From NCBI GenBank assembly GCA_964493305.1, contig CAZBLW010000001.1, positions 305,484-369,483 on the forward strand: a stretch of 64,000 bases of DNA, read 5' to 3'. This stretch comes from an uncultured Gammaproteobacteria bacterium (GTDB taxonomy: Bacteria > Patescibacteriota > Patescibacteriia > S139-126). Under the pieces are notes generated by a model, which did not search any database, had not been told where the DNA came from, and saw only the letters and a list, made by a program, of their open reading frames with translations. This document shows, piece after piece, positions 2,301 to 31,613 of this stretch (its first letter is position 1; every line of letters starts with the position of its first letter). The position numbers and the translations under genes are program-made.

Positions 2301-2651
2301 AATACTCTTAAATTATTTACTTGGGATTTAGCGGCTAATTTAGGTTATTGGCCGATTTGGTGGTACGGTCGGGGTTTAGCTAATTTTTTTAATTCTTACA
2401 CCAATCAATTAAAGAATGCTTGGCGCAATAGAGCCTTGGATATTTTATTAAAAAATTGGTTTAAACCAATGTATGCTCAGACCGATTGGCAGGGGAGAAT
2501 TTTATCATTTTTTTTCCGCACCCTAATTATTATTTGGCGGTTATTATTTTTTTTCCTATGGGCTTTGTTAATTACTCTAGGTTTGGTGTTGTGGGTCAGT
2601 GTTTTACCCCTTGCCTTATATATGCTTATTAGATTATTGCTTTTTTCATGA
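2283..2651 (+). CDS. Hypothetical small membrane protein with a hydrophobic C-terminus.
   Basis: 122-codon ORF in an AT-rich genome with a 4-nt ATGA overlap with the downstream Clp gene. Its ATG sits in the loop of the tgt terminator, so the start is doubtful. Confidence 0.35.
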   Translation: MLQLFFNTLKLFTWDLAANLGYWPIWWYGRGLANFFNSYTNQLKNAWRNRALDILLKNWFKPMYAQTDWQGRILSFFFRTLIIIWRLLFFFLWALLITLGLVLWVSVLPLALYMLIRLLLFS

Positions 2652-5305
2652 GTTTAAATTTTCCTGATTTAAATAATTTTAAAGTAGCTTTGACTCCAGC
2701 TGGTGCTCGTTACCAATTTGGCCGGTTATTGTTTGATTGGCCAAAAAGGATTGATGCGGCCGGGGTGTGGCAAAGTAAAATTAATAGTTATTTTAACAAC
2801 GGCGTTAATATTTTTTTGGTTTTAGTTTTTATTCAGGGTTTAACTCGTTTTTTAATTTTGTTTTGGCAAAATAATTGGCAGTGGTCAGTTGATTTTTTAT
2901 ATCTGCCAGAATTATTTGTTTGGTGGGTGGCTTGGTTGGCTCTGAGCTATTTAATTTTTCGTTTAAAATCAAGACAGGTTAAACAATCAGTATTGACACC
3001 AAAGCAAATTGAGCAAAAATTTTTACATAAAGACAAGCCGGAATTACTGGATATTTCCGCTGGCTTTAGGATGGACGCCATCTTATTGATTGAAAGATCG
3101 TGGCAGATTGCCAAAAATTTCAATCAACTGCAGGTAAATAATTGGAGTTTATTGTTTTCTATTTTAGAAAGTAAAAAATTGGTCGGGGTTTTAGCCAGAT
3201 TGGGCGTAGGTCGTGATGATGTTTTACTGAGGTTAAAAAATGTAATGAAAATAAATGAGACCAATAAAAATCTTCCCCAAGTTAGTCAGGAAGTTTTTAC
3301 GGTTTTATTTAAAAGTTATTTTTTAACGGCCAAACGTCGCCAGGCTTGGGTGGGAGTTGCTCAAATTTTGGAAGCTTTAGTGATGAGTGATGATAAAATT
3401 CAAGACTTATTTAATGATTTATCAATTAGCGCTGAGCAATTACACCAAGTGATTGATTGGATAACAGTCAATGATCAGTTGTGGGAAAGTTATCAACGCC
3501 AACGTAGGTTATCGCGTTATAAGCCAAAGAATTCTATGAACAAGTCAATGACTGCTGTCGCTACACCGTATTTAGATAAATTTGGTTATGATTTAACTTT
3601 AGCCGCCAAGTACGGTAATTTAGAAATTTGTGTGGGCAGAGAAAAAGAAATTGAAGAAGTTTTTCGAGTGGTTGAAGCTGGAAATGATTCGGTGGTGTTA
3701 GTTGGTTTTCCTGGTGTTGGTAAGACCACCATAATTCAAGGTATTGCTCAGTTGATGGTGACTGAGGATGTACCAGATAGTTTACGGGATAAGCGGATGG
3801 TGTCATTATCACTGCCTAGATTGGTGGCGGGGGCTGGTTCGCCAGGTATGTTGGAAGAAAGAATTTTAAGAATACATCATGAAATGATTAGAGCTGGCAA
3901 TGTAATCTTGGTAATAGAAAATATTCATGATATTTATGGTATCAATACACAGAGTGGGGAGGGTTTGGATTTATCAGAAGTAATGGCTGATTTGATTGCT
4001 GATAATCGATTTTTGGTTTTGACTACTTCCAATCCGAATGATTATCGCACAAGTATTGCCGGTAAAGCATTGGGTAATAAATTACAGAAAATTGAAGTCA
4101 ATGAAACTAATCCCGAACAAACGATGGCCGTATTGATTGCCAAGGTAAATTTTTATGAATATAAATACAAAGTATTTTTTTCCTTAGGGGCCTTGCAAAA
4201 AGCCATTGAGTTATCCAATCGTTTTATGCACGAGTATTATTTGCCTGAAAAAGCGATTAAGATTTTGGAAGAAGTAGCTGTTTATGTTTTAAAACAAAAA
4301 GGAGAAAAAAGTTTGATAGCTAGTGAAGATGTGGCCAAGTTGGTTTCACAAAAAATAAATATTCCGTTGACAAAAATTACTCAAGACGAATCAACTAAAT
4401 TGTTAAATTTGGAAGAAGAAATCCATCAGTATATAATCAATCAAGCCGAAGCGGTCAGAGCCGTGGCTTCTGCTTTACGTAGAGCGCGGACTGAGTTACG
4501 CGATGAGAAAAGACCAATTGTTAATTTATTGTTTTTAGGTCCGACCGGAGTAGGTAAAACGGAATTGGCAAAAACGGTAGCTTTGACCTATTTTGGTAGT
4601 ACCAACGATATGGTGAGGTTGGATATGTCTGAATATCAAAATAAAGATTCCGTAGGGCGGTTAATCGGTACGGAGCAAAACACTACCGGCGGATTATTGA
4701 CTGAAAGTATTAAACAAAATCCCTTTGCTGTTTTATTACTCGATGAAATTGAAAAAGCTCACAGTGATATTTTAAATATATTTTTACAAGTAATGGATGA
4801 TGGTCGATTGACTGATTGGTCAGGTCAGGTGATTGATTTCACTAATGTAATTATTATTGCTACTTCCAATGCCGGTTCACAGTTTATTCAAGATCAATTA
4901 CGAGCCGGAACTCAGGTAGCAGTGATTAAAGAAATGTTGTTGGTAGAAAAATTAAAAGAAGTTTTTCGGCCAGAATTTTTGAATCGGTTTGACAATATTG
5001 TTGTTTTTACCCCGTTGACAGAAGATCATATATTAGAAATTGCAAAACTAATGATAAAAAAATCACAAAATCGTTTGTTACAAAAGGGGATTCATTTGGA
5101 AGTTACTCCCACCGCTTTAGCAGAATTAGCCCAGAGCGGATTCGATCCTTTATTTGGTGCCAGACCAATGCGTCGGGTGATTCAAGAACAAATTGATGAT
5201 GCTTTAGCAAAGTATCTTTTATCAGGAAAAATTAGTCGACGGGATATTGTGGTATTTGATAGTGGCGGCAAAGTAAGTATTAAAAAAGCTCAACAGTATA
5301 TATAA
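2648..5305 (+). CDS. Clp/Hsp100-family double-AAA+ ATPase (ClpA/ClpC-like, no long M-domain) with an N-terminal extension containing two predicted transmembrane (TM) segments, followed by a Clp_N-like region.
   Basis: D1 Walker A is GFPGVGKTT. D1 Walker B reads ILVIENIHD (degenerate compared with the IDELH form). D2 has LFLGPTGVGKTELAK, LLLDEIEKAH, sensor ATSN and the RFD motif. The N-terminal stretches VNIFLVLVFIQGLTRFLILFW and LFVWWVAWLALSYLIF are hydrophobic. Confidence 0.8.
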   Translation: MSLNFPDLNNFKVALTPAGARYQFGRLLFDWPKRIDAAGVWQSKINSYFNNGVNIFLVLVFIQGLTRFLILFWQNNWQWSVDFLYLPELFVWWVAWLALSYLIFRLKSRQVKQSVLTPKQIEQKFLHKDKPELLDISAGFRMDAILLIERSWQIAKNFNQLQVNNWSLLFSILESKKLVGVLARLGVGRDDVLLRLKNVMKINETNKNLPQVSQEVFTVLFKSYFLTAKRRQAWVGVAQILEALVMSDDKIQDLFNDLSISAEQLHQVIDWITVNDQLWESYQRQRRLSRYKPKNSMNKSMTAVATPYLDKFGYDLTLAAKYGNLEICVGREKEIEEVFRVVEAGNDSVVLVGFPGVGKTTIIQGIAQLMVTEDVPDSLRDKRMVSLSLPRLVAGAGSPGMLEERILRIHHEMIRAGNVILVIENIHDIYGINTQSGEGLDLSEVMADLIADNRFLVLTTSNPNDYRTSIAGKALGNKLQKIEVNETNPEQTMAVLIAKVNFYEYKYKVFFSLGALQKAIELSNRFMHEYYLPEKAIKILEEVAVYVLKQKGEKSLIASEDVAKLVSQKINIPLTKITQDESTKLLNLEEEIHQYIINQAEAVRAVASALRRARTELRDEKRPIVNLLFLGPTGVGKTELAKTVALTYFGSTNDMVRLDMSEYQNKDSVGRLIGTEQNTTGGLLTESIKQNPFAVLLLDEIEKAHSDILNIFLQVMDDGRLTDWSGQVIDFTNVIIIATSNAGSQFIQDQLRAGTQVAVIKEMLLVEKLKEVFRPEFLNRFDNIVVFTPLTEDHILEIAKLMIKKSQNRLLQKGIHLEVTPTALAELAQSGFDPLFGARPMRRVIQEQIDDALAKYLLSGKISRRDIVVFDSGGKVSIKKAQQYI

Positions 5306-5345: not shown

Positions 5346-5525
5346 ATGTGTTTTCAGTTACCAAAAAAAGTTATTGGGATTCGTGGCCATAAAGCCAAAC
5401 TAGCAGATGGCAGTTGGGTTGATTTGAGTTTAATGACCGAAGAGTGTGTAGTCGGTGATCATTTATTTGTAGCTGATAAATTTGCTGTTTCCAAAATAAG
5501 CAACCAAACAATAATTAATCAATAA
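5346..5525 (+). CDS. hypC: Hydrogenase maturation factor HypC (HupF/HypC family), 59 aa; too short for the ORF track to list it.
   Basis: Hand translation gives MCFQLPKKVIGIRGHKAKLADGSWVDLSLMTEECVVGDHLFVADKFAVSKI… The N-terminal MC(x)2(L)P and the GDhhhVh.hFA core match HypC. Confidence 0.7.
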   Translation: MCFQLPKKVIGIRGHKAKLADGSWVDLSLMTEECVVGDHLFVADKFAVSKISNQTIINQ

Positions 5526-5540
5526 AATTAATAAAAAAAT

Positions 5541-6437
5541 ATGCAGTTCAATACACGAGGTTGGATATTAGTAACTTTGACAGCTTTGATTAGCGGGTTG
5601 TCAATCTTTTTAAATAAATTTGGTGTTAGTACAATCGATGCAACTTTATTTACTGGTTTAAAAAATATTACTGTTGGAATTTTGTTTGCTGGTTTGATAT
5701 TTTATTCACCCCAACAAATTAATTGGCGAAATATTACCAAATCCCAGTGGGTAAAATTATTTTTTTTAGGTTTAATCGGTGGTAGCATACCCTTTGTATT
5801 ATTTTTTCACGGATTAAAATTGACATCTAGTTTACACGCAGGTTTTATTCATAAAACGCTATTTATTTATGTAGCTTTATTGGCTGTAATATTTTTAAAA
5901 GAGAAATTAACAAAATATTATGGATTTACCTTGCTGGCCATGTTGTTAGGTTTATTGGTTTTTTCTCAAGTTAAACCATTTATTTTAAATTATGGAGATT
6001 GGTTGGTTTTATTGGCCACGCTACTGTGGTCAATAGAAATTATTATTGCCAAAAAATTATTACATGATTTACCGGCCAATGTTGTAGCTTTGGCCAGAAT
6101 GTTTCTGGGTGGTATTTTGATTTGGTTTTATTTAATTGGACAAGGTGGTTATGAACAAATATTTAGTTTGAATTTTGTAGAATGGCGCTGGGTAGTTATT
6201 ACCTCGTTGTTATTGTTTGGTTATGTATACACTTTTTATCACGGTTTAAAATATATACCAGCTTCAGTCGCAACGGTTATCCTGACCATAGCGGCACCAA
6301 TTACCGCACTACTTAATTTTGGTTTTTTTAGTTCGATTATTAGTTCAGGTCAATGGTGGGGATTAGTAATAATTTTTATCAGTTTTTATTTGCTTAGCCG
6401 TCGTTATTTGACCAAGCAAATTTATGAACTCAAATAA
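5541..6437 (+). CDS. EamA/DMT-superfamily permease (10 TM, two EamA repeats).
   Basis: Two ~140-aa hydrophobic repeats of 5 helices each. Tightly packed between hypC and downstream genes. Confidence 0.75.
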   Translation: MQFNTRGWILVTLTALISGLSIFLNKFGVSTIDATLFTGLKNITVGILFAGLIFYSPQQINWRNITKSQWVKLFFLGLIGGSIPFVLFFHGLKLTSSLHAGFIHKTLFIYVALLAVIFLKEKLTKYYGFTLLAMLLGLLVFSQVKPFILNYGDWLVLLATLLWSIEIIIAKKLLHDLPANVVALARMFLGGILIWFYLIGQGGYEQIFSLNFVEWRWVVITSLLLFGYVYTFYHGLKYIPASVATVILTIAAPITALLNFGFFSSIISSGQWWGLVIIFISFYLLSRRYLTKQIYELK

Positions 6438-7182
6438 AATCGAAGTTTTACAAAAGATAAGACGACTTACTTTTCCCACCTATGATCAAATCACGCTTGA
6501 TCGGAAAGGTTTACAGGTTATCAATTATTTATTTTTAAATCCTGATTGCCAAGCGGATATTAAATTGGCAAGTCTAACAGGACCAATTATAAAATTGGCA
6601 TCACTGGGGCAACATATTATTACTGCTGCGCCTTCAACTTTAGCTAAATATGCTCAGAAACATAATATTAACCACTTACAGACGGGGGATATTTTACATT
6701 GTTTTGCTTTGGAACACGCACATGATCTTTCTGCAAATAAAATTGATATTAAATATAAACCGCATTATGCTTTAGCTCATTTACTTAATTTTTCCCAAGT
6801 AAAAAAGATAGACAGGTTGGCAAAACAAAGACTCGCCACCTTAGAAAGTAGATTGCCCTGGGGGAAAATTATTTTCAAGAAAGTATTTATTCCCAATGAT
6901 TTAAAAATCAGTGTTCAGGATTATGTTTACCATCATTTTGGGGTAGTAGTTGCCCGGGACGATAAATCTGAGTTAGCGCAGAAAATTTATCAAGAGCAAA
7001 TTAATCATTTACAAATTGCTACTTGGTTAAAAGAGACAATTAAAAAAAGTATTGTGATTGATTTTTCCAATGTAAATATTTTCCAACAAAATGTAGTTGA
7101 TAATATAATTCATCCACAAAAAGTTAAGCTGATCAGTAATCCCCAAGATATAGCTCAAGGTAAAATTAAATTTAAGAAATGA
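6424..7182 (+). CDS. Hypothetical protein (252 aa) with His/Cys-rich patches (HCFALEHAH, YHHF).
   Basis: Start overlaps the EamA gene by 14 nt and the stop overlaps the hycI-like gene by 4 nt, so it is translationally coupled into the hydrogenase accessory operon. Confidence 0.55.
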   Translation: MNSNKIEVLQKIRRLTFPTYDQITLDRKGLQVINYLFLNPDCQADIKLASLTGPIIKLASLGQHIITAAPSTLAKYAQKHNINHLQTGDILHCFALEHAHDLSANKIDIKYKPHYALAHLLNFSQVKKIDRLAKQRLATLESRLPWGKIIFKKVFIPNDLKISVQDYVYHHFGVVVARDDKSELAQKIYQEQINHLQIATWLKETIKKSIVIDFSNVNIFQQNVVDNIIHPQKVKLISNPQDIAQGKIKFKK

Positions 7183-7553
7183 AAATTTCAGTTTTTGGCA
7201 ACCCCAATTTACCCCAAGATTCATTGGCTTTTCGTTTGGTGCCTCATTTACAGCAATTAATCCCTGGTGCTGAATTTATTCATCAAGATCCTCAAGAGCA
7301 GATTATGCCATCTGACGAGCCAGTGTGGTGGATTATTGATGTTGTAAAAGGTATTGCACAAGTTAAGGTTATAGAAAATTTGGATGAGTTAAAAGATAAA
7401 CGGCGAGTTAGCATGCATGATTATGATTTATCTACTGAACTAAAATTAATCAAAAAAATATATCCTCAGCTGGTATTGAGGATAATTGGCGTTCCAGAAA
7501 AAGGGGATATTAAGTTATTAGCCAAGCAAGTAGCTACTATTCTAACCAGTTGA
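7179..7553 (+). CDS. Hydrogenase maturation endopeptidase (HycI/HybD/HoxW family).
   Basis: MKISVFGNPNLPQDSLAFRL aligns to the HycI N-terminus (LLCVGNSMMGDDGAG). WWIIDVVKG corresponds to the conserved Asp block, and SMHDYDL to the His block (THNMPL). The 3' end converges on and overlaps the large-subunit gene. Confidence 0.6.
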   Translation: MKISVFGNPNLPQDSLAFRLVPHLQQLIPGAEFIHQDPQEQIMPSDEPVWWIIDVVKGIAQVKVIENLDELKDKRRVSMHDYDLSTELKLIKKIYPQLVLRIIGVPEKGDIKLLAKQVATILTS

Positions 7554-8829
7554 CCTCCAAAAAATGCGAGGCACAACTCATACAAGGATCATAAGCCCTA
7601 ATGATTTTTTCGCACGCTAGAGCTAATTCTTTTTTTGGTTGCTTGAGGTTTTTTTGTATATATTCGGCTATATCCAACTCAATTGTTATTTGATTTTGTC
7701 CAGTAGGAACAATAACCTCACCTGTGGTTACTATACCTTTGTCGTCGATAGTAAGTTTGTGATATAAGGTTCCTCTGGGAGCTTCTACGACTCCCACTCC
7801 AGTAGCTGCTCGTAGTTCTAGTTTATCTGGTTTGGCTGGTTGAAAATTATTGGTTTTTAAAATACTGATCGTATCGTCGATTGAATGTAAGATTTCAATA
7901 GCTTGCGCTAGATTATTATGATAGGCATTATCTGAGGGAAAAACTTTTAAAGCTTGGGCGCAATCTTTTTTGGTACGATCATTTAGCGCTTGTCGGTTGA
8001 GATTGATTCTAGCTAGAGCCCCGACTCGATAAGGTTGTCCAGCAAAAGTATAGGCTGAGGCTTGAGAATAGGGTAGTACCACATGCTCTAAATGATTACG
8101 GAATTCTGCTTCCTCAGCGATTACGCCATTCATATCACAGAGTTTTCCTTCTAAGTAAGAATAGTCATCATTTTTTAAGGCGGCATAATTAGTCGGTCTA
8201 ATTAATTGGTCAGGTGCATTTAAAAACAATTCAATTAGTCTCAACACGGCTGGTCTCACTTTTTCCATTTCCTCTATTAGGGCGGTTTTACCGTTGTTAT
8301 CAGGGATTTTTAAAAATCCACCCGGAACTGGAAAAGGTGCGTGGACACTACGCCCGGCGGTGTATTTGGCCAAATTATTTCCCGCACTTTTTACGGCAAA
8401 AGTGTCATGAAGAAGTTGATGTTGTAATTTGTCGTGTTCATCAAATTCCAGTAGGGAATCTTTTTGAAATAAGTCTGGTAAAACAAATACATAGAGATGT
8501 AAAGCGTGATCTCTAATGATCAATCCATGATAAGTCAGAGTGCGAAGTATTTTAGTTTGTGCGGAGGGCACATAGTTTAAGGTTTTTTCTACCGCTTCGA
8601 TACTGGCGATTAAATGGGCGATGCTACAAGTACCACAAATTCTGGATAATAACTGAGGAACAGCCGCGATAGGTTTTCCTTGAATTGCCTGAGTATAAAA
8701 TCTTTTATAATCTTGAACTTTAAATTTTACATATTCAACTTTACCATTAGTTACTTTGACATCCAATCCAGCGGAACCCTCCACTTTGGTGATTTCATTG
8801 ATATTAAGATCAAAGTCAATAAGGTGCAT
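7537..8829 (-). CDS. [NiFe]-hydrogenase large (catalytic) subunit.
   Basis: N-terminal L1 motif RICGTCSIAH (RxCGxCxxxH) and C-terminal L2 motif DPCMSCASH (DPCxxCxxH), with 8 residues after the His. 430 aa. Confidence 0.85.
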   Translation of the reverse strand: MHLIDFDLNINEITKVEGSAGLDVKVTNGKVEYVKFKVQDYKRFYTQAIQGKPIAAVPQLLSRICGTCSIAHLIASIEAVEKTLNYVPSAQTKILRTLTYHGLIIRDHALHLYVFVLPDLFQKDSLLEFDEHDKLQHQLLHDTFAVKSAGNNLAKYTAGRSVHAPFPVPGGFLKIPDNNGKTALIEEMEKVRPAVLRLIELFLNAPDQLIRPTNYAALKNDDYSYLEGKLCDMNGVIAEEAEFRNHLEHVVLPYSQASAYTFAGQPYRVGALARINLNRQALNDRTKKDCAQALKVFPSDNAYHNNLAQAIEILHSIDDTISILKTNNFQPAKPDKLELRAATGVGVVEAPRGTLYHKLTIDDKGIVTTGEVIVPTGQNQITIELDIAEYIQKNLKQPKKELALACEKIIRAYDPCMSCASHFLEVNWLE

Positions 8830-9327
8830 TTATTTAATATTAAATTGTTTAAACATTTGTTCTACTAGTTCAATAAACTTTTGTTCATTCATGGGACAAC
8901 CTGGTACCTTAGCATCAACCTTTACTATCTCCTCTAATTTTCTTACTTTTTCACCATAATTGAATTTTTCCAATAAGAAATCAATTGATTTTCTTACTTC
9001 CTGAGGAAATTCGTTGCGTTGGGCTGATGGCATACCAGTTACTGCACACGCTCCAACAGCCACCAATACTTTAGCTTTAGCTCTAATTTTTTTTAATTCT
9101 TTAGCTTTGGCCTCAGAAGCAATAGCTCCTTCCACAAAAACCACATCCATATCAGTCAGGGAGTTTTTTGATTGTAATACTTTGGCATGTTTAAAGTCCA
9201 AATAGGGCAACCAGTCTTGCCAATGTTCATTTAAAATTTCAGTAAATAAAACCGTACTATCCTCACAACAACTAAATGTAAACCAGCCAACCCTAAGCTT
9301 TTTAGTTTTTGCAGAAGTTTTTTTCAT
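8830..9327 (-). CDS. [NiFe]-hydrogenase small subunit, minimal form with a single proximal [4Fe-4S] cluster.
   Basis: Cysteine pattern FSCCEDS…GACAVTG…PGCPM. Only 165 aa, with no medial or distal cluster cysteines and no Tat signal. The stop abuts the large-subunit ATG (TAAATG). Confidence 0.8.
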   Translation of the reverse strand: MKKTSAKTKKLRVGWFTFSCCEDSTVLFTEILNEHWQDWLPYLDFKHAKVLQSKNSLTDMDVVFVEGAIASEAKAKELKKIRAKAKVLVAVGACAVTGMPSAQRNEFPQEVRKSIDFLLEKFNYGEKVRKLEEIVKVDAKVPGCPMNEQKFIELVEQMFKQFNIK

Positions 9328-9334
9328 TGTTTAT

Positions 9335-9363
9335 ATTATAACATTTTATACTGACTATGTCAT
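9335..9363 (-). promoter_or_regulatory. Sigma-70-like promoter for the hydrogenase operon. The -10 lies 7 nt from the ATG, suggesting a leaderless mRNA.
   Basis: On the minus strand: ATGACA-17 nt-TATAAT-ataaaca-ATG. There is no Shine-Dalgarno sequence. Confidence 0.4.
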
Positions 9364-31184: not shown

Positions 31185-31613
31185 ATGTCTCATCAAGAAG
31201 TAGAAAACATTCATGTCATTTGTACGGATCCCAGGATCCAAAAGTTATACCACGAATGGTTGGTTAAAAATGATTTATTTGGGAAGTTTGATACTATCCA
31301 ATTTGAAAATCCAATTCTTTCGTTTTTATATCCTGCCACTAGGCAAGCTATGCTAGCTCGTCTTGGAGCCTATATTAAACTTCACGGACCACATACCGTG
31401 GTACTTATTGATCACTTTGATTGTGGCGCTTATAAGTTGTCAGGATATTCATTTGTTGATTTTACAGTAGAAGCAAAAAAACACGAAGAAAATAACAAAT
31501 TAGTAAAAGAAATTATTCAAAATGCATACCCTCAGCTCAAGGTAGATATTAAATATATTAATATTACCGGTGATTCATGTGAATGGATTGAGAATATTCA
31601 AGATTACTATTAA
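31185..31613 (+). CDS. Small beta-class carbonic-anhydrase-like protein (142 aa).
   Basis: Both zinc-ligand signatures of the beta-CA family are present: ICTDPRI (CxDxR) and IDHFDCGA (HxxCG). Strong RBS AAAGGAG. The protein is shorter than typical beta-CAs. Confidence 0.4.
   Translation: MSHQEVENIHVICTDPRIQKLYHEWLVKNDLFGKFDTIQFENPILSFLYPATRQAMLARLGAYIKLHGPHTVVLIDHFDCGAYKLSGYSFVDFTVEAKKHEENNKLVKEIIQNAYPQLKVDIKYINITGDSCEWIENIQDYY

Follow-up and report, generated by a model that had tools for sequence, protein, structure and literature searches.

A permease gene and a gene for a HypC-fold protein linked to group-3b NiFe hydrogenases in Patescibacteria: a candidate hydrogenase biogenesis module

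The maturation of NiFe hydrogenases is thought to require six Hyp proteins together with a supply of nickel. In HypC, the conserved residues Cys2 and His51 are implicated in binding of the iron group. To our knowledge, all characterised permeases encoded in hydrogenase clusters (HoxN, HupE, and Nik) supply nickel, and we know of no nickel-uptake family within the drug/metabolite transporter (DMT) superfamily. The genomes of the candidate phyla radiation (CPR) and of DPANN archaea are very small, yet group-3b hydrogenases are common there. In a 64-kb stretch of contig CAZBLW010000001.1, referred to below as the window, the gene of an EamA/DMT permease and the gene orf252, encoding a protein of 252 amino acids (aa), are located beside a group-3b-like NiFe hydrogenase. 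It seems somewhat probable that this eamA–orf252 pair is a dedicated biogenesis module for the adjacent group-3b NiFe hydrogenase in Patescibacteria, in which a HypC-fold metallochaperone is coupled to a permease. That orf252 is a HypC-derived hydrogenase accessory protein can be stated with good confidence.

The enzyme of the window resembles the CPR hyd2 hydrogenases (Jaffe et al. 2020, PMC7304191), which have a truncated small subunit with a mean length of 164 aa, no adjacent β and γ subunit genes, and a hypC-like family nearby. The similarity includes a small subunit of about this length, the absence of adjacent β and γ genes, and a neighbouring hypC-like gene; related loci found in this analysis are of the hyd1 type of the same work. 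According to PMC7304191, hyd2 must depend on unknown genes for support. In the searched text and supplementary files of that paper, the EamA permease, orf252, and proteins of the DUF6390 family (PF19927), which take the place of orf252 in other loci, go unmentioned. No paper linking EamA or DUF6390 to group-3b hydrogenases, and none mentioning DUF6390, was found in the searched literature, where the EamA–orf252 module is undescribed. The pair addresses the genes proposed to support the two-subunit hyd2, and the combination of a permease with a HypC fold is a testable candidate for metal acquisition or active-site assembly in CPR bacteria and DPANN archaea. With EamA, a transporter of the DMT superfamily would be tied to hydrogenase biogenesis for the first time, and the linkage provides a first functional context for the unannotated orf252 family (33 clusters) and for DUF6390 (about 700 clusters).

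The window has a G+C content of 30–37% and a gene content like that of Patescibacteria (CPR), including tgt, a ClpB-like gene, and genes of a type IV pilin and glycyl-tRNA synthetase; its nearest genomic relative carries the label Candidatus Paceibacter. Four co-directional genes are located on the forward strand, 3′ of the ClpB-like gene, which ends at position 5305. These are a hypC-like gene (5346–5525), eamA (5541–6437), orf252 (6424–7182), and a hycI-like gene (7179–7553). The same four genes were returned by an independent gene caller; orf252 and its neighbours are real genes and not chance open reading frames (ORFs). An earlier note on this DNA had described this gene order, with common direction and overlaps of 14 and 4 nucleotides (nt), and the re-derived coordinates agree with it. 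The 14-nt overlap (6424–6437), however, lies between eamA and orf252 and not between hypC and eamA, on which the wording of the note is ambiguous; the latter two are separated by a spacer of 15 nt. The orf252 and hycI-like frames overlap by 4 nt (ATGA) and are start–stop coupled. The hydrogenase structural genes, which that note left unmentioned, are on the reverse strand and converge on the hypC–eamA–orf252–hycI operon. In the window, eamA and orf252 thus share an operon with hypC and the protease gene and not with the structural genes. The hycI-like and large-subunit genes overlap tail to tail on opposite strands by 17 nt (7537–7553); therefore, convergent transcription must enter the partner gene.

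A genome scan for orf252 homologues, with one genome per species, gave 18 loci (L001–L018). In 17 of them, as in the window, the eamA gene immediately precedes orf252, with NiFe hydrogenase genes as neighbours. EamA belongs to a hydrogenase-cluster-specific subfamily that exceeds the orf252 family in size, with no fewer than 384 clusters of homologues at E < 1e-20; all ten sampled members (10/10) are located inside NiFe hydrogenase clusters. In all, a hydrogenase is present beside a related pair at 28 of the 29 places examined. The association with hydrogenase genes suspected in the earlier note was thus recovered in related genomes, and a widespread occurrence of the pair apart from such genes was not seen in the sampled loci.

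At least four gene arrangements can be distinguished. In the hyd2-type orf252 loci (the window and L001–L005), the order hypC–eamA–orf252–hycI converges on the α and δ genes. The placement of the pair between hypC and the protease gene, which the earlier note had emphasised, is valid for these six loci, whereas in the 15 hyd1-type orf252 loci (L007–L018, L022, L024, and L029) the pair is inside a four-subunit operon, between the γ and δ genes. The hyd1 order is β–γ–[hypC]–eamA–[HTH_5/ArsR-type]–orf252–[hypC]–δ–[Ldh_2]–α–hypA (N-domain). Between the hyd1 and hyd2 types, the identity of the large subunits is about 30%, that of EamA is 41–48%, and that of orf252 is 31–39%. The eamA and orf252 frames overlap by 8–50 nt in 14 of 20 loci. 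In the sampled EamA loci, the next gene encodes either an orf252-family protein (L022, L024, and L029) or DUF6390 (L021, L023, L025, L027, and L028). In the Nanoarchaeota loci L020 and L026, which encode identical proteins, the neighbour of EamA is a HypC-domain protein of 157 aa encoded on the opposite strand, in the company of VIT1, HypC, and HypA. In addition, the pair follows the α gene in L027 and is divergent from a fused δ–α gene in L028.

Some of these loci have further peculiarities. In L028 (Microgenomates), the small and large subunits are fused in one 565-aa ORF (3116–4813, reverse strand), which is divergent from EamA–DUF6390. The Nanoarchaeota cluster (L020, 7557–10822, and L026) contains genes of a HycI-like protein, EamA, the 157-aa protein, whose HypC domain is C-terminal, a 134-aa protein, VIT1, HypC, and a full HypA with the zinc-site cysteines.

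The linkage might be gene order inherited without function in one CPR lineage. All the loci come from one superphylum and one DPANN lineage, and the flanking genes (ClpB, RarA, a histidine kinase, and phosphoglycerate kinase, PGK) are common to related genomes, as would be expected from such inheritance. Nevertheless, the flanking genes vary between loci, and the linkage persists through four or more rearrangements, across two hydrogenase clades of about 30% identity, after the exchange of orf252 for DUF6390, and in an archaeal lineage. Such persistence is better explained by function than by an inherited order; moreover, orf252 itself has the fold of a hydrogenase chaperone. We therefore consider an inherited order without function to be very improbable.

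Besides its own cluster at 100% identity, orf252 has 33 full-length homologue clusters with 34–67% identity; the few clusters named by source are labelled Patescibacteria or Komeilibacteria. An exhaustive HMMER search of 1.84 billion representatives revealed only 18 proteins of the family. Because of these numbers, the orf252 family is to be regarded as small and lineage-restricted, yet clearly conserved. No NCBIfam match and no PDB match by sequence or profile search were found for orf252. Pfam gave no match above the threshold in 25 members; weak HypC/HupF matches appeared in 2 of the 25 (best E of 0.012), and none was obtained for the window protein.

Three regions can be noted in the orf252 protein. 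A model constructed using AlphaFold (AF2) with a 16-sequence alignment has a predicted local distance difference test score (pLDDT) of 89.5 and a predicted template modelling score of 0.87, whereas the single-sequence model has a pLDDT of 34. The N-terminal domain (residues 1–121; 6424–6786), which carries alignment invariants, is mostly helical (residues 3–119 of the model) and has a pLDDT of 85–97; no Pfam, PDB, or fold match was found for it. It is followed by a five-strand barrel of the HypC-like oligonucleotide/oligosaccharide-binding (OB) type (residues 122–179; 6787–6960), with strands at residues 122–132, 135–144, 147–156, 167–171, and 174–179 and a pLDDT of about 95. The third region (6961–7182) consists of helices (residues 183–229), among them two long ones at residues 183–207 followed by short elements, and a disordered tail. 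After the variable, low-confidence linker, the protein ends in a conserved terminal (G)KIxF (residues 236–252; 7129–7182), which could be a tethered docking peptide.

A Foldseek search against the PDB indicated HypC as the best match by probability (0.94), namely chain 3vyu_A from the T. kodakarensis HypC–HypD–HypE complex, with a template modelling score of 0.72 (normalised by the target and the highest among the matches) and a root-mean-square deviation of 3.3 Å over 63 columns. All matches were OB folds, and none covered the full length. Profile comparison agreed with this result. Using a HypC profile made of the E. coli protein and 20 CPR and DPANN sequences, hhalign matched the orf252 barrel alone with a probability of 87.2% (E of 3.8e-6) over 57 columns. 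The earlier note had placed neither protein in a known Hyp family. This remains correct for orf252 as far as Pfam, NCBIfam, and PDB sequence matches are concerned, but the protein contains an OB domain of the HypC type and is therefore a divergent, multi-domain relative of the Hyp family. The suggestion in the same note that orf252 is a new accessory factor or metallochaperone fits the barrel and the invariant His and Cys residues.

The residues invariant in 25 orf252 sequences include Cys42 (NPDC), Thr67, Ala68, Pro70, and Thr72 (IITAAPST, residues 65–72), Cys93, Phe94, and His98 (CFALxH), His119 (YALAH), and His171, Gly173, and Val174 (HHFGVV). The HCFALEHAH and YHHF patches, to which the earlier note drew attention, are found at residues 92–100 and 169–172. 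In a more divergent set, His98 and His119 are still invariant, and Cys42 and Cys93 are missing from a single sequence, that of P0048, the most distant one. In the hhalign register, position 5 of HypC is aligned with Asn122, and His51 and Gly53 are aligned with the invariant His171 and Gly173. Since position 5 is aligned with Asn122, Cys2 of HypC corresponds to the invariant His119, just before strand 1. The location of His119 and His171 at the Cys2 and His51 positions is a lead to a role in a metal site and not a test of it.

In comparison with HypC, HybG, and HupF (PF01455), orf252 has in common the OB barrel, the His-x-Gly on strands 4–5 at the His51/Gly53 position, the location in a NiFe hydrogenase cluster beside the maturation protease, and an expected role at the metal centre or with the unprocessed large subunit. 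However, the protein is 252 aa in length, whereas the HypC/HupF proteins have 70–110 aa, and its barrel is internal, with a helical domain of about 120 residues before it and two long helices after it. In HypC/HupF, the essential Cys2 follows the initiator Met; its counterpart in orf252 is the internal His119. In addition, orf252 scores under the Pfam gathering threshold for HypC/HupF and co-occurs with a separate small HypC.

Other Hyp proteins were also considered as relatives of orf252. In hhalign comparisons with the E. coli proteins HypA, HypB, HypD, HypE, HypF, HycI, and HycH, the probability was below 6% for all. For HypD it was 0.3%, and the PDB profile search, which included HypD entries, gave no match. 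The HypD hallmarks (CGxHxH, GPGCPVC, GFETT, PxHVSx3G, and a C-terminal 4Fe-4S Cys cluster) are not present in orf252; the likeness of NPDC and TAAPST to the HypD motifs GPGC and ETTMPTT is only loose and was judged coincidental.

The positional counterpart of orf252 is DUF6390. It is encoded directly after EamA in five loci of other CPR lineages (L021, L023, L025, L027, and L028), while orf252 takes the equivalent slot in the window and 20 related loci. The family, itself uncharacterised, comprises 703 clusters, almost all from CPR, a few of which are labelled 'hydrogenase maturation factor' by JGI. Its invariant residues are Cys20, His123, His124, His127, Cys150, and His207. The C-terminal half is matched to HypC by hhalign with a probability of 95.5% (E of 1.4e-8), only HypC was found among PDB matches at E < 1, and His207 is aligned with His51 of HypC. 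Cys150, located in the CRxGWG motif at the start of this half, may recall the MC-x-x-x-P-G of HypC; the hhalign match begins a few residues later.

Both orf252 and DUF6390 belong to a length class of about 240–265 aa and are encoded immediately after EamA genes of one subfamily, in many cases with an overlap of the frames. Like orf252, DUF6390 is found in CPR hyd1 clusters and has a HypC-like C-terminal half and an invariant set of Cys and His residues. At the position of HypC Cys2, however, DUF6390 has Cys, whereas orf252 has His, and outside the last barrel strands there is no significant sequence relation. The identity of orf252 with DUF6390 was considered and rejected: Pfam assigned none of the 25 members to the family, and an hhalign comparison of orf252 with 31 aligned DUF6390 sequences reached 5% (E of 0.008). 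With trimmed alignments, the barrels reached 12–15% and the N-terminal domains, which are not detectably related, 0.5%. Because the similarity is not significant, we treat the two proteins as analogous or very distantly related, with a HypC-type barrel and a gene slot in common.

These observations can be brought together in the following mechanism. The orf252 protein would be a cytoplasmic multi-domain relative of HypC/HupF, with the OB barrel between helical domains. The metal-ligand positions of HypC, Cys2 and His51, would be filled by His119 and His171, and His98, Cys42, and Cys93 would be added from the helical domain. The protein may bind metal, or it may bind the metal-free large subunit, and it probably acts with the small HypC-like protein, which keeps Cys2 and has lost His51. 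The HycI-type protease would subsequently act on the large subunit, and the DMT permease, encoded in an overlapping frame, may import or remove the cargo handled by orf252. The observations show the gene structure, the linkage, the fold, and the conserved residues; that orf252 binds metal and acts with HypC, and what is transported in which direction, are inferred from them.

Alternatively, EamA and orf252 might be partners of the mature enzyme, either as a membrane anchor with an adaptor or with orf252 as an electron-transfer or regulatory subunit replacing β and γ in hyd2. The hyd2 enzyme consists of a large and a truncated small subunit only and has no known electron partner, and PMC7304191 supposes support by unknown genes; orf252 has conserved Cys and His residues, and hyd1 loci hold the pair between the structural genes. 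On the other hand, hyd1 has the full set of β, γ, and δ subunits and yet retains the pair. The two Cys and three His of orf252 are located on different secondary-structure elements, form no known Fe–S motif, and include two Cys that are absent in P0048. Besides, the barrel resembles HypC, whose fold is that of a chaperone, and in the window the pair belongs to the hypC–protease operon on the strand opposite to the structural genes. A role as partners of the mature enzyme is thus quite unlikely.

Several observations weigh against a metallochaperone–permease module. The E-value in the Foldseek search was about 0.05 at best, and other OB folds scored similarly to HypC. When full-length orf252 was compared with HypC, hhalign gave only 30% (E of 5e-4) and 66.8% (E of 5.3e-5). 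One locus, L006, has an orf252 homologue (2640–3470) between genes of a histidine kinase and PGK; the 6.5-kb contig carries neither EamA nor a hydrogenase. The locus has probably been left behind by a deletion, because the same two genes flank intact clusters in L012 and L022. In the permease, the polar residues that are invariant or nearly so across 36 sequences (His104, Lys105, Lys120, Glu121, Glu166, Lys171, and Arg186) form no nickel-permease signature of the HX4DH type. They resemble those of DMT carriers of organic solutes and are no less compatible with a cargo that is organic or complexed. Likewise, the Ldh_2, 2-Hacid_dh, and Aminotran_5 genes inserted in some clusters fit metabolite transport at least as well.

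In view of these residues, EamA could be an ordinary metabolite carrier (for example, for a hydroxy acid, an amino acid, or a sulfur compound) with a flux tied to the NAD(P)-linked redox balance that involves the hydrogenase; orf252 would then be a hydrogenase chaperone in the same operon, without any cargo handover. Such a carrier is also suggested by the best curated EamA match, TIGR00950 (carboxylate/amino-acid/amine transporter, 9e-12), which is far under the cut-off, and by the presence of Ldh_2, 2-Hacid_dh with Aminotran_5, and phosphoenolpyruvate (PEP)-utilizer genes within several hyd1 operons. However, the pair is kept in hyd2 loci, which have neither NAD(P)-binding β and γ subunits nor dehydrogenase genes. 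Moreover, EamA is always followed by a HypC-domain protein, whether orf252, DUF6390, or the form of 157 aa, and in most cases the frames overlap. In a neighbour-joining tree of EamA, which is crude and has no bootstrap values, the sequences are grouped largely by partner type: the DUF6390-partnered sequences occupy a single region, which also holds the two sequences from Nanoarchaeota, the orf252-partnered hyd2 sequences form their own clade, and the orf252/hyd1 sequences fall into several separate groups. An independent metabolite carrier therefore appears unlikely, though less so than the other alternatives.

In the proposed biogenesis module, the cargo may be nickel, iron, or an organic ligand. 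EamA (298 aa) has about 8–10 transmembrane segments; a simple hydropathy scan counts about 8, which is probably an undercount. Pfam EamA is matched with E of 6.2e-34 and two repeats, and no other Pfam match above the threshold was obtained in the permease. Among the 10 predicted membrane proteins of the window, no canonical nickel permease was found. EamA is similar to HoxN/NixA (NiCoT), HupE/UreJ, and NikABCDE in that a transporter gene is located among hydrogenase structural or maturation genes; it differs in belonging to the DMT superfamily and in having no His/Asp-rich signature like that of NiCoT and HupE/UreJ. Because of the precedent of the HoxN, HupE, and Nik permeases in hydrogenase clusters, the most likely cargo would be nickel or a nickel complex. 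Import of nickel itself by EamA, for which this analogy speaks, is a tentative proposal.

Genes in the surroundings were counted in favour of a metal-related role. VIT1, a member of an iron-transporter family, is encoded close by in the Nanoarchaeota, and a P-type cation ATPase of unassigned specificity is encoded downstream of the L021 cluster. In five loci, where the eamA and orf252 frames do not overlap, an ArsR-type gene (Pfam HTH_5, 91 aa) separates eamA from the homologue of orf252 (L007, 3021–3293; L010, 9657–9926; L012, 9652–9927; L018, 9704–9964; and L022, 8927–9202). The HTH_5/ArsR-type family includes many metal sensors; on inspection by eye, no obvious metal-site residues of the α3 or α5 type were noted in these regulators.

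The window HypC-like protein (59 aa, beginning with MCFQLP) is matched by Pfam HupF_HypC (E of 1.1e-5) and TIGR00074 (E of 6e-5), both below the cut-off. It retains the N-terminal Met-Cys and has no His equivalent to His51 of the E. coli protein. Orthologues are present at most related loci (L001–L026). Cys2 is kept in all 21 small HypC-like proteins compared, whereas none of the 21 has His at the His51 position, which is filled by Ala, Gln, Glu, or Thr. Unlike them, the larger orf252, DUF6390, and 157-aa proteins retain this His.

The 124-aa product of the hycI-like gene has only weak family matches. NCBIfam NiFeSe protease gave E of 0.005, and the Nanoarchaeota orthologue matched Pfam HycI with E of 0.009, all under the threshold. 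The hhalign probability against E. coli HycI is 1.5%; the alignment is collinear and places the D of IIDVV on Asp62 and the H of SMHD on His90. The gene is present in all eight loci where the large subunit has an HFLEVxW extension and in none of the 13 where the large subunit ends at His. Functionally, this co-occurrence provides good evidence that the 124-aa candidate is a minimal endopeptidase of the HycI type.

Neither tblastn nor motif searches revealed HypB, HypD, HypE, or HypF in the 64-kb window or in the flanking DNA of the 18 genome-scan loci (at most 10 kb to either side), whole genomes being outside the scope of this search. A broader scheme can be imagined, in which Patescibacteria and some DPANN archaea use a reduced, non-canonical NiFe maturation: HypC-fold fusions (orf252 or DUF6390) and the mini-HypC without His51 would replace the HypC–HypD scaffold, the HypB/SlyD nickel step, or both, and the DMT permease would import metal or a ready-made ligand or precursor scavenged from a host. 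The NiFe(CN)2CO site would then be reached by a new route; the scheme is speculative, and we regard it as improbable.

Other genes with a possible relation to maturation were noted in individual loci. Proteins like HypA of about 85 aa, beginning with MHD or MHE and devoid of the zinc-binding cysteine domain, are encoded in hyd1 loci (L011, 13095–13349; L013, 12861–13118); this start is the N-terminal nickel-binding motif of HypA. No such gene of about 85 aa was found in the window. A carbamoyltransferase gene is present near L023 and is not conserved at the other loci.

In the window, the large subunit of the group-3b-like, hyd2-type hydrogenase (7537–8829, reverse strand; NiFeSe_Hases 1.5e-27, ShyA 6.5e-67) has the RICGTC and DPCMSCASH motifs and a C-terminal extension of 8 residues. 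The truncated small subunit (8830–9327, reverse strand; 165 aa) is matched by Pfam Oxidored_q6 with E of 3.5e-21. It reads FSCCEDS at the place of TSCxGC in hyd1 homologues, so that the cysteines of the first pair in the proximal-cluster motif are rearranged and stand next to each other (CC in place of CxxC). Immediately 5′ of the small-subunit gene, a promoter-like site is located on the reverse strand (9335–9363; ATGACA-17-TATAAT with TG, 11 of 12 positions), which is a consensus match only.

Additional genes are found within the hyd1 operons: Ldh_2 between δ and α, Aminotran_5 with 2-Hacid_dh, secreted or transmembrane proteins with a PEP-utilizer, and a serpin. These insertions are located in L012 (12067–13038), L014 (5974–6921), L022 (11342–12313), L021 (9668–11661), L024 (8708–14818), and L029 (8654–12841). 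Pyr_redox_2 (thioredoxin-reductase-like) and glutaredoxin-like proteins are recurrently encoded at the flanks of hyd1 clusters (L013, L016, L017, L023, L025, and L027). Elsewhere in the window, a putative carbonic anhydrase gene (Pro_CA_2, E of 1.2e-8) is located at 31185–31613, immediately 3′ of the F-type ATP synthase operon.

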